Positions 691 through 3,469 of a stretch of DNA of 39,488 nucleotides are shown here, in pieces (the first letter of the stretch is position 1; the number at the start of each line of letters is the position of its first letter). Position numbers and translations under genes: made by a program. The notes under the pieces were generated by a model, which was not told where the DNA came from, ran no database searches, and saw only the letters and a list, made by a program, of their open reading frames with translations. The DNA is taken from the sequence record PV833354.1. One strand, 5' to 3'. The stretch comes from Escherichia phage vB_Eco_ZCEC02.

Positions 691-696
691 TTCTGA

Positions 697-717
697 CTTA
701 ACTATCACTATAGGACT
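697..717 (+). promoter_or_regulatory. phage RNAP promoter (CTTAACTATCACTATAGGAC) directly upstream of the RNAP gene
   Basis: Matches the 11-member promoter family in this window; core CACTATAGG shared with T7/SP6-type promoters. Confidence 0.7.
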
Positions 718-787
718 CAAGGTCTAAGACTCCAAGTGAAAGACCAAAGAGACTTTAAGTGAAAGACTAATAACAAGGACTTTAAGT

Positions 788-3469
788 ATGAGCGTCATCT
801 CTATTGACAAGCACGACTTCTCTGATGTGTCGAACGCCATTGAGCCGTTTAACCTACTGGCTGACCACTACGGGCAAGACCTTGCAGTCAAACAGCTGCA
901 GCTTGAGCACGAGGCATACACTGAAGGCGAGCGACGTTTCATCAAGAACCTTGAGAGACAGACTGAGCGAGGGGAACTGGCAGACAATCAGGTAGCCAAG
1001 CCTCTTATGCAGACTCTTGTTCCTAAGATTGCGCAAGCCGTCAAGGAGTGGCACGAAGGTCCAGACGGGAAGCTGTCAACCTCTCGTCCGAGCGTAGCGT
1101 TCAACATGTTGAGCACTGAAGAGAAGGCCGTAAAGGTTCGCTCTTTGCGCATCTCCTGCGAGTCTGCTGCGGTTATCATACTGAAGGTCATACTCTCCAA
1201 GCTGGTCAAGCCTGAAGGGATACCGATTACACCGATGGCCTCAGCGATAGGTCGCACACTTGAGGACGAAATCCGCTTCGGTCGCATCCGTGACAAGGAG
1301 AAAGAGCACTTCAAGAAGGCGATAGCTGATAACCTGAATAAGCGGGCCGGGGCGTCCTACAAGAAAGCCTACATGCAAGCGGTCGAGGCATCCATGCTGG
1401 AGCAAGGCCAACTGGAAGATGCGTGGGGGACTTGGAGTCCTACAGAGGCTGTCCACGTTGGCATCAAGATGCTTGAGATTGTCATCCAGTCAACACAACT
1501 GGTAGAGCTTAAGCGGTACGGTGCTGGCAATGCAGCGGCTGACGTAGAGATGGTCCACCTGTCAGACTTCTGGGTCAAGAAGATGGCACAACGAGGATTC
1601 AGCCTTGCTGGCATCGCTCCAGTCTACCAGCCTTGCGTCGTTCCACCTAAGCCGTGGACTGGTGTAGTAGGGGGTGGGTACTGGGCCAAAGGACGCAGAC
1701 CACTACCACTGATTCGCTTAGGGTCTAAGTCTGCGGTGGCACGTTACGAAGACGTGTACATGCCTGAAGTCTATGACGCTGTGAATATCATCCAGAATAC
1801 ACCTTGGAAAGTAAACAAGAAGGTTCTGGACGTGGTGAACATGGTCGAGAAGCTGAACAACACGCCTATTGATGACATCCCTCAGATGGAACCGCTGAAG
1901 CCTGAGGACTATGCGGGTGAGACTGAAGAAGAACTCAAGGCATGGAAGAAGGCTGCTGCTGGTATCTATCGCCGCGAGAAGGCCAGACAGTCACGAAGAT
2001 TGTCACTGAGCTTTATCGTCAACCAAGCGAACAAGTTCTCTCAGTTCAAGGCCATCTGGTTCCCGTATAACATGGACTGGCGCGGTCGCGTCTACGCTGT
2101 GCCGATGTTCAACCCTCAGGGGAACGACATGCAAAAGGGTCTTCTGACTCTGGCAGTCGGTAAGCCTATTGGTGCTGATGGTTTCAAATGGCTGAAGGTC
2201 CACGGTGCAAACTGCGCGGGTGTCGATAAAGTCACCTTCGAGGAGCGTATCAAGTGGGTGGAAGATAACCACGACAACATCATGGCTGCTGCCAAGGCAC
2301 CGATGGATAGCATTGAGTGGTGGGGCAAGTTAGACTCTCCGTTCTGCTTCCTAGCGTTCTGCTTCGAGTATGCTGGCGTAATGCACCACGGCTTGTCTTA
2401 CTCCTGCTCGCTGCCGATAGCGTTCGATGGGTCCTGCTCTGGGATTCAGCACTTCAGCGCTATGCTTCGCGACCACATCGGTGGACATGCAGTAAACCTG
2501 ACGCCATCCGGTAAGGTCCAAGACATCTACCGCATCGTGTCTGACCGCATTGAGGAGGAGCTTAAAGTCCTGCTGATTAACGGTACTGACAACGAGAAGG
2601 TCACTCACGAGGATAAGAAAACTGGTGAGATTACCGAACGTATCAAGCTGGGGACACGAGAGCTGGCCCGTCAGTGGCTGACATACGGTATGTCACGCAA
2701 GGTCACTAAGCGTTCAGTCATGACTCTGGCATACGGGTCGAAAGAGTACGGATTCGCAGACCAAGTTTACGAGGACATCGTGATGCCAGCGATTGACTCA
2801 GGGTCTGGCGCTATGTTCACTGAACCAAGCCAAGCGTCTCGCTTCATGGCAAAGATGATTTGGGAAGCTGTGAGTGTGACAGTAGTTGCTGCGGTTGACG
2901 CGATGAAGTGGCTTCAAGGTGCTGCCAAGCTGCTGGCTGCTGAGGTGAAGGACAAGAAGACTGGAGAAATCCTGAAGCCTTGCCTTCCGGTACACTGGGT
3001 CACACCTGATGGGTTCCCGGTCTGGCAGGAGTACCGCAAGAAGGATACCACTCGTCTGAACCTGATGTTCTTAGGGTCATTCAATCTTCAGCCTACCGTC
3101 AACAGAGGTACGAAGAAAGAGCTGGACAAGCACAAGCAGGAGTCAGGCATTAGCCCTAACTTCGTCCACTCACAAGATGGTAGCCACCTGCGGAAGACTG
3201 TAGTCCACACTCACCGCAAGTATGGCGTGATGTCATTCGCAGTGATTCACGATAGCTTCGGGACCATCCCTGCTGACGCTGAGTATCTGTTCCGTGGTGT
3301 CCGTGAGACGATGGTCGAGACATACCGCGATAACGATGTGCTGCTTGACTTCTACGAGCAGTTTGAATACCAGCTTCATGAAAGCCAGCGCGACAAGTTG
3401 CCTGAGCTTCCGAAGAAAGGTAAACTGAATATCGAAGACATCTTGTCTTCAGACTTTGCATTCGCTTAA
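788..3469 (+). CDS. 1: T7-like single-subunit DNA-dependent RNA polymerase (893 aa)
   Basis: Near-colinear with T7 RNAP; motifs DGSCSGIQHFSAM and VIHDSFGT; specificity loop YRKKDTTRLNLMFLGSFNLQPT; C-terminal SSDFAFA (T7 ESDFAFA). Confidence 0.98.
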   Translation: MSVISIDKHDFSDVSNAIEPFNLLADHYGQDLAVKQLQLEHEAYTEGERRFIKNLERQTERGELADNQVAKPLMQTLVPKIAQAVKEWHEGPDGKLSTSRPSVAFNMLSTEEKAVKVRSLRISCESAAVIILKVILSKLVKPEGIPITPMASAIGRTLEDEIRFGRIRDKEKEHFKKAIADNLNKRAGASYKKAYMQAVEASMLEQGQLEDAWGTWSPTEAVHVGIKMLEIVIQSTQLVELKRYGAGNAAADVEMVHLSDFWVKKMAQRGFSLAGIAPVYQPCVVPPKPWTGVVGGGYWAKGRRPLPLIRLGSKSAVARYEDVYMPEVYDAVNIIQNTPWKVNKKVLDVVNMVEKLNNTPIDDIPQMEPLKPEDYAGETEEELKAWKKAAAGIYRREKARQSRRLSLSFIVNQANKFSQFKAIWFPYNMDWRGRVYAVPMFNPQGNDMQKGLLTLAVGKPIGADGFKWLKVHGANCAGVDKVTFEERIKWVEDNHDNIMAAAKAPMDSIEWWGKLDSPFCFLAFCFEYAGVMHHGLSYSCSLPIAFDGSCSGIQHFSAMLRDHIGGHAVNLTPSGKVQDIYRIVSDRIEEELKVLLINGTDNEKVTHEDKKTGEITERIKLGTRELARQWLTYGMSRKVTKRSVMTLAYGSKEYGFADQVYEDIVMPAIDSGSGAMFTEPSQASRFMAKMIWEAVSVTVVAAVDAMKWLQGAAKLLAAEVKDKKTGEILKPCLPVHWVTPDGFPVWQEYRKKDTTRLNLMFLGSFNLQPTVNRGTKKELDKHKQESGISPNFVHSQDGSHLRKTVVHTHRKYGVMSFAVIHDSFGTIPADAEYLFRGVRETMVETYRDNDVLLDFYEQFEYQLHESQRDKLPELPKKGKLNIEDILSSDFAFA

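Follow-up and report, generated by a model that had tools for sequence, protein, structure and literature searches.

The gene 1 locus

The DNA analyzed here (the window, meaning the whole stretch of 39,488 nucleotides deposited as PV833354.1 for Escherichia phage vB_Eco_ZCEC02) contains a predicted phage promoter, designated phi1, directly in front of the RNA polymerase gene. The first 3.5 kb of the window share 97–98% identity with Kayfunavirus (K1F-like, T7 group) Escherichia phages, among them vB_EcoP-101136BS1, HC13, and LM33_P1, and by this sequence comparison the window is a Kayfunavirus genome, a K1F-like T7 relative that represents another isolate of the genus. Since position 1 of the K1F genome corresponds to window position 37522, the window is a circularly permuted genome, and its physical left end lies at 37522, where the initial annotation of this DNA had also placed it.

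Gene 1 (788–3469, + strand) codes for a single-subunit RNA polymerase of 893 amino acids (PHROG 414, E = 0) that is 98% identical to its counterparts in Kayfunavirus genomes. It is preceded on the same strand by an early open reading frame (ORF; 364–690) encoding 108 amino acids and assigned to PHROG 7066, a family of unassigned function, whose TAA stop codon (688–690) lies 6 nt 5' of the promoter. The promoter thus falls into the 97-nt intergenic gap (691–787) between this stop codon and gene 1, and has the orientation of the gene. It spans −17 to +6 (696–718, + strand; ACTTAACTATCACTATAGGACTC), with G713 as predicted start site, and is followed by a transcript leader of 75 nt (713–787, + strand) that extends to the ATG of gene 1 at 788.

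A predicted phage promoter in front of gene 1

The 20-mer CTTAACTATCACTATAGGAC occupies positions 697–716. With up to three mismatches allowed, 10 matches to it were found in the window, all on the + strand, compared with 0.00 expected from shuffled sequences; the predicted starts of these strong sites are 713, 4034, 5690, 6666, 14904, 17743, 18731, 23410, 31079, and 36939. A weight matrix built from the same 10 sites assigned phi1 a score of 32.3 bits, within the range of 31.6–35.7 bits covered by the set. Both results bear out the claim, made in the initial annotation, that a cognate phage promoter lies upstream of gene 1. Of the boundaries given there (697–717) the start was correct, whereas the end is one base less (716), and the proposed distance of 75 nt to the gene agrees with that from G713 to the ATG at 788.

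The site carries the CACTATAGG-type conserved core and the initiating G of T7-group promoters and matches the genome's own consensus. Its surroundings are also those of a promoter in this group, as the site is non-coding, points in the direction of the gene, and is followed by a gene with a ribosome-binding site (AAGGA, 9 nt 5' of the ATG at 788). The initially transcribed sequence is GGAC at phi1, as it is at 4034, 5690, and 6666, and GGGA at 14904, 18731, 23410, and 36939. With an initial sequence that departs from the late consensus and a location in the left part of the genome, phi1 fits the class II (middle) promoter type of T7. A weaker promoter-like site, CCTAAACTATCACCTTAGGGATG, was detected at 9177–9199; it scores 25.2 bits, compared with at least 31.6 for the ten strong sites, has two changes in −4 to −1, and may be a weak or decayed middle promoter.

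The weight-matrix scan revealed no further site above 12 bits between 36939, which corresponds to the phiOR position, and 713, and hence no equivalent of phiOL, the left-end promoter of T7. This agrees with the earlier statement that no phiOL-like sequence is visible at the left end. A GACTATAGG-like string at the left end (position 436 in K1F; TTGACTACAGG at window position 37918) was considered as a hidden phiOL and dismissed; it fits a sigma-70 −35 box and not the phage consensus, and scores below 12 bits.

Conservation and co-variation with polymerase specificity

Polymerase loci were gathered from IMG/VR and from annotated phage records. A promoter site proximal to gene 1 was present in every sampled Kayfunavirus-like genome, located 74–102 nt upstream of the gene. 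In 27 out of 27 distinct Kayfunavirus-like leader sequences, that of K1F included, the distance was 74–82 nt, and in a more divergent contig (L013; 78% polymerase identity) it was approximately 90–100 nt. A profile of 15 K1F-type sequences varies only outside −13 to +6, but these sequences had been chosen on the core, which makes the profile partly circular, and it was not relied on.

The specificity region of the promoters (−8 to −12) occurs in four dialects, each of which is common to the gene 1-proximal site and the other promoters of the same phage. K1F and the window use ACTAT (CTWAACTATCACTATAGGA); Cronobacter phage GW1, the Enterobacter phages EcpYZU01 and 02_vB_Eclo_IJM, and the contigs L015 and L035 use ACCCT (TTAAACCCTCACTATAGGA); Kosakonia phage Kc166A has CACTGTAGG at all sites; and L013 uses AGGTA (AAGGAAGGTACACTATAGG). 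In the window the specificity loop of the polymerase is RLNLMFLGSFNLQ, compared with RLDLMFLGTFRLQ for the ACCCT phages and RIKLMFMG-VQYR for L013; the D..R.Q pattern in the loop of the ACCCT phages is shared with a T3-like polymerase that likewise has ACCCT promoters. The site before gene 1 therefore tracks the recognition code of the enzyme through several changes of specificity, which indicates that it is under selection for recognition by that enzyme. As judged from sequence comparison, this co-variation of promoter dialect and polymerase loop is the strongest functional evidence short of experiments. It lends support to the initial suggestion that the phage polymerase could transcribe its own gene directly, and the comparison with related genomes that had been proposed as a check yielded a conserved, dialect-matched site throughout the Kayfunavirus-like genomes.

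A different arrangement was found in the T7-, T3-, and KP32-like loci, where the 130 nt preceding gene 1 contain an RNase III-type hairpin and lack a promoter. The corresponding genomes carry a cognate promoter at the phiOL position, approximately 2.5–2.8 kb upstream, in accordance with the earlier remark that T7 lacks a cognate promoter at the site of phi1. The two arrangements were mutually exclusive in the sample: Kayfunavirus-like genomes had phi1 only, and T7-, T3-, and KP32-like genomes phiOL only. This exclusivity is what would be expected if phi1 were a displaced phiOL that does the job of the T7 promoter (as a secondary origin, in polymerase-driven genome entry, or in concatemer processing) and the transcription of gene 1 were incidental. 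The functions of phiOL are poorly defined. However, the site is fixed 74–102 nt before gene 1, together with the ribosome-binding leader of the gene, in every lineage, which argues for selection on the link to gene 1, and the leader resembles that of T7 phi1.1B and not the left end. A displaced phiOL is thus regarded as improbable. A T3-like contig of 36 kb (L036; IMGVR_UViG_2706796511) has a cognate promoter just 617 nt upstream of its polymerase gene, where an early-region deletion probably brought phiOL near gene 1.

In light of its match to the consensus, its conservation, and its co-variation with polymerase specificity, phi1 very probably functions as a promoter for the single-subunit RNA polymerase that the phage itself encodes, and is the first of this kind along the genome, which would make gene 1 both an early and a middle gene. 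Several points weigh against this interpretation. In the SFPH2-type lineage, the gene 1 promoter alone reads CACTAAAGG, with an A for T at −2, and the other promoters of the same phage have T at this position. The −2 A, which is also found in T3 promoters and some T7-like promoters, may mean that the site has been tuned down or weakened or that it is under a second constraint. No mapped transcript 5' ends and no in vitro transcription results for a Kayfunavirus turned up in a literature search, and the same evidence would also fit a site that acts mainly in DNA replication and not in the expression of gene 1. Furthermore, positive feedback on gene 1 is something we infer from the layout of the locus, and T7 manages without a proximal promoter. 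The T7 polymerase can already reach gene 1 from phiOL, and the Kayfunavirus difference would therefore be one of proximity and strength, not of principle.

The phi1 leader and the RNase III site R1

The leader is rich in A (43%, top 0.2% of all 75-nt windows of the genome) and in A + T (63%, top 2%), and is built from degenerate repeats. The sequence GTGAAAGAC occurs at 736–744 and 759–767 and extends to the exact repeat AAGTGAAAGAC (734–744 and 757–767, + strand), whose second copy overlaps by 4 nt with the first copy of another exact repeat, GACTTTAAGT (751–760 and 778–787, + strand). The second GACTTTAAGT copy forms the spacer from the Shine-Dalgarno sequence AAGGA (774–778) to the ATG. Each of these three sequences is found exactly twice in the whole 39.5-kb window, in all cases within the leader. 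They are part of a degenerate array of GAC-phased units of approximately 14 nt, with GAC at 714, 728, 742, 751, 765, and 778, and among 75-nt windows the leader is the genome-wide maximum for AAG (9 copies), RRGAC (5), and GACT (5). The folding energy across the leader ranges from −5 to −10 kcal/mol per 70 nt, compared with an early-region mean of −15.1, which places the leader among the least structured parts of that region. A scan of positions 500–900 against Rfam yielded only chance-level matches to snoRNAs (E > 2).

The first GACTTTAAGT copy contains ACTTTAAGT, a 9-nt palindrome around a central T. A role of this palindrome as an operator, and mini-ORFs starting from the GTGs at 736 and 759, were considered as speculative possibilities. 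Quasi-palindromes of the GACTTAAAGT type are also located at 38073–38082, within the spacer of a sigma-70 promoter candidate, and at 37826–37838, near the left end; the T7 promoter A1 presumably carries GACTTAAAGTC, and the motif family seems to be tied to regulatory regions.

In the initial annotation the duplicated motifs had been placed at the position of the T7 RNase III site R1. The duplication (two copies each, in this leader only) and the location stand, but an RNase III-type hairpin does not accompany them. If the region were the Kayfunavirus version of R1, the promoter-like sequence and the repeats would serve as hairpin arms in host-made early transcripts, and the resemblance to a promoter would be secondary. 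This was assessed by folding 713–800, 640–800, and 713–775, by a 70-nt scan of the early region, by folding six lineage variants, and by RNAalifold on 11 variants. The fold of 640–800 does pair the promoter (−11 to +7) with GAGACTTTAAGTGAAAG, but none of the three folds is better than chance (z = −1.27 for 640–800, +0.62 for 713–800, and −0.39 for 713–775), and the best 70-nt window, a hairpin with the promoter as 5' arm, reaches −17.4 kcal/mol, where the regional mean is −15.1 ± 4.6. Among the lineages, a perfect 10-bp inverted repeat, ATCACTAAAG/CTTTAGTGAT, is found in the SFPH2-type phages and encompasses the −2 A variant; the hairpin is not formed, however, in the minimum-energy folds of EcpYZU01, Kc166A, and L013, and RNAalifold recovered just a 4-bp stem (−3.1 kcal/mol) and no consensus structure.

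The window also offers genuine sites for comparison. Three T7-type RNase III hairpins are located at 4034–4095, 11160–11230, and 34510–34580 (near 4040, 11172, and 34523), with z-scores of −3.2 to −3.7 like T7 R1.1; the first of them lies 3' of the promoter at 4034 and matches T7 R1.1. They have in common the RNA motif AGACUCAAGGUCA...UGGCCUUYAUGRUUA (AGACTCAAGGTCA...TGGCCTTYATGRTTA). The phi1 leader begins with GACTCAAGGTC (at 714), which is the 5' motif of these hairpins, but the conserved 3' arm UGGCCUUYAUGRUUA is missing from it. A role as hairpin would, moreover, leave the co-variation of the site with polymerase specificity unexplained. With no significant or conserved fold, the R1 reading was rejected as highly implausible: although located at the R1 position of T7, the leader is not an RNase III site of the T7 type.

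The inverted repeat of the SFPH2-type contigs (L225, L226, L228, L009–L011, L017, and L018) is an observation in its own right. ATCACTAAAG...CTTTAGTGAT lies between promoter and leader, within approximately 60 nt around the site, and its chance expectation is roughly estimated at 0.007 per region. The folding of the leader would then differ between host-made and phage-made transcripts.

Resemblance to the primary replication origin of T7

Replication of T7 starts at phi1.1A/phi1.1B, the primary origin, and a phage promoter is required at each T7 origin (PMC8373140; PMC12796468). The module formed by phi1 and its A/T-rich, repeated leader might be the counterpart of the T7 primary origin module (phi1.1B with the AT-rich region), shifted from the downstream to the upstream side of gene 1. 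In a global alignment, phi1 with its leader and the adjoining ribosome-binding site is colinear with phi1.1B and with the leader and ribosome-binding site of gene 1.1, and the ribosome-binding region GGACTTTAAGTATG is identical in gene 1 of the window and T7 gene 1.1. Local alignment to the phi1.1B module gave a score of 53, compared with 17.9 ± 3.6 for shuffled sequences; with the ribosome-binding site excluded, the score was 28 versus 15.4 ± 3.1 (p = 0.003). No other part of the window matches the T7 leader as well as the segment 711–751. An interpretation of the leader as a fusion of the start of the phi1.1A leader with the phi1.1B leader was dropped, as the global alignment is a simple colinear match to phi1.1B alone.

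The gene order points in the same direction. The next phage promoter (start at 4034) and its RNase III-type hairpin (4018–4080, + strand; z = −3.62) are the homologue of T7 phi1.1A/R1.1, which has been kept, but neither phi1.1B nor an AT-rich module follows it. Together with the high A + T content directly 3' of a phage promoter, these features would agree with an origin at which transcripts made by the phage polymerase prime DNA synthesis in the A/T-rich stretch. On the other hand, further leaders in the window reach 60–65% A + T, and the 63% of the phi1 leader is less extreme than the T7 origin region, which we take to be richer in A + T. The leader contains only one T7-type primase recognition pentamer (GACCA at 742, bottom strand), and its likeness to the T7 leader could merely reflect a shared style of translation initiation. 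Origin function has been shown for T7 only (PMC8373140), and an origin role would in any case be compatible with the transcription of gene 1.

That the module acts mainly or additionally as a replication origin is thus possible, though rather unlikely. The same tentative standing applies to the more specific proposal that Kayfunavirus replication might start directly upstream of the polymerase gene, coupled to self-transcription of the polymerase, with the GACT..AAG array as functional origin core. An origin role for the module could be treated as a lead, not as a finding.

Comparison with known systems and previous annotations

In K1F, the same site is present at 2475–2494, 75 nt before gene 1.0; in this phage, as in CR44b, PE3-1, and Sparklingdew, 20-mer and leader differ little or not at all from those of the window. 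In phage CR44b (HG818823.1), the same 23-bp site (1814–1836) is annotated as "predicted promoter," whereas the 23-bp site of PE3-1 (KJ748011.1, L222; 2874–2896) is labelled "host RNAP promoter." The latter conflicts with the sequence, which is that of the phage polymerase consensus, and is probably a mis-annotation. In the 2026 genome paper on Sparklingdew, CTWAACTATCACTATAGG appears among the listed repeats, with a copy at the 3' end of SPD_007, which precedes the polymerase gene SPD_008 (PMC13298934). There is no difference of substance between these four phages and the window. Self-transcription of gene 1 is not discussed in the sources on K1F-type genomes that were covered by the search, which did not include the 2005 K1F genome paper.

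An artificial counterpart is the T7 autogene, a plasmid construct reportedly engineered by Dubendorff and Studier in 1991, in which the gene of the polymerase is driven by a promoter that this enzyme recognizes. Within T7 itself, the closest likeness to phi1 is phi1.1B with the AT-rich leader of gene 1.1: both are class II-type promoters followed by colinear A/T-rich leaders with repeated YTTAAG and AAGAC and an identical GGACTTTAAGTATG. However, T7 has phi1.1B on the 3' side of gene 1, where it drives gene 1.1, whereas phi1 lies upstream of gene 1 and is predicted to drive the polymerase gene. The distance to gene 1 also separates phi1 (75 nt) from T7 phiOL, which is located at the left end, approximately 2.75 kb upstream.

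Among natural systems, the Pseudomonas phage LUZ100 has a phage promoter, likewise designated phi1, directly upstream of its polymerase gene, which was mapped by ONT-cappable-seq; ignition by read-through of the host polymerase combined with positive feedback has been proposed for this phage (PMC10134795). LUZ100 and the window thus share a phage-specific promoter directly 5' of the phage RNA polymerase gene, but LUZ100 is a distant, temperate-like T7 relative whose phi1 is presumed to be under the control of a MarR-like repressor, whereas the window lacks such a repressor context and its promoter is predicted. In Vibrio phage phiA318, a predicted promoter (phi-A8) directly precedes the genes for the kinase and the polymerase, and autoregulation has been suggested (PMC4099482). 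This phage differs in that it belongs to another subfamily with another promoter consensus, its promoter stands before both genes and not before the polymerase gene alone, and the evidence is a prediction only. The site described here is accordingly not new, being conserved genus-wide and already contained in public annotation, and the idea of self-transcription has already been raised for LUZ100 and phiA318, which makes phi1 of the window minor as a discovery.

Proposed expression programme

The layout of the locus corresponds to that of an autogene of the LUZ100 phi1 type, with a phage promoter 75 nt upstream of the gene, a sigma-70 promoter candidate at 38058–38087, and no + strand terminator-like site between this early promoter candidate and gene 1. 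This site (TTGACA-18-TAGTAT, + strand), which matches the consensus at 10 of 12 positions, is the best sigma-70-type early promoter candidate of the window, lies approximately 540 nt from the left end at 37522, and probably gives rise to the earliest transcripts of gene 1. A second sigma-70 candidate was noted by eye at approximately 37918. After the ligase gene, a terminator-like 12-bp hairpin followed by a T run (5599–5626, + strand) represents a candidate for the early terminator TE and, at −30.2 kcal/mol, the strongest fold of the early region.

According to the programme proposed from these features, host sigma-70 polymerase would start approximately 0.4–0.55 kb from the left end, read the ocr gene and the small early ORFs, cross phi1 into gene 1, and halt at the TE-like terminator 3' of the ligase gene. 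The first molecules of phage polymerase would then bind −17 to +6 of phi1 (696–718) and initiate at G713, producing an mRNA with a 75-nt A-rich, unstructured leader and the Shine-Dalgarno sequence AAGGA 9 nt before the ATG. From this point, transcription of gene 1 may become self-reinforcing and free of the host polymerase. Transcripts from phi1 would continue into the middle genes, because the host terminator TE is ignored by T7-type polymerases. By analogy with the class II promoters of T7, phi1 would be active in the middle period and later be damped by the phage lysozyme.

In the textbook T7 programme the polymerase gene is purely early and transcribed by the host. A whole genus of T7 relatives appears to be wired otherwise, with a proximal self-promoter and no phiOL, and this genus is in wide use for phage therapy and as a supply of orthogonal polymerases. 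The proposed programme thus bears on expression-timing models for T7-like phages and on a possible resistance of gene 1 expression to the shut-off of the host polymerase, and the phi1 leader might be usable as a natural "autogene" leader in the design of circuits based on the K1F polymerase.

Further observations

Two additional features were observed near the left end. A stable hairpin (−25.6 kcal/mol) is located at 38192–38261, just 5' of an ocr-like gene (38291–38797), at the position of the T7 RNase III site R0.3. Short tandem copies of approximately 15 nt (AACCTACAGTCCTAC-like) are present at 37715–37775 and match the terminal repeat unit of Sparklingdew (PMC13298934). Among the database records, MT350292.1, deposited as "Enterococcus phage EFA-1" with Enterococcus faecalis as host, encodes a polymerase 98.8% identical to that of this Escherichia coli Kayfunavirus, and its host attribution looks doubtful.

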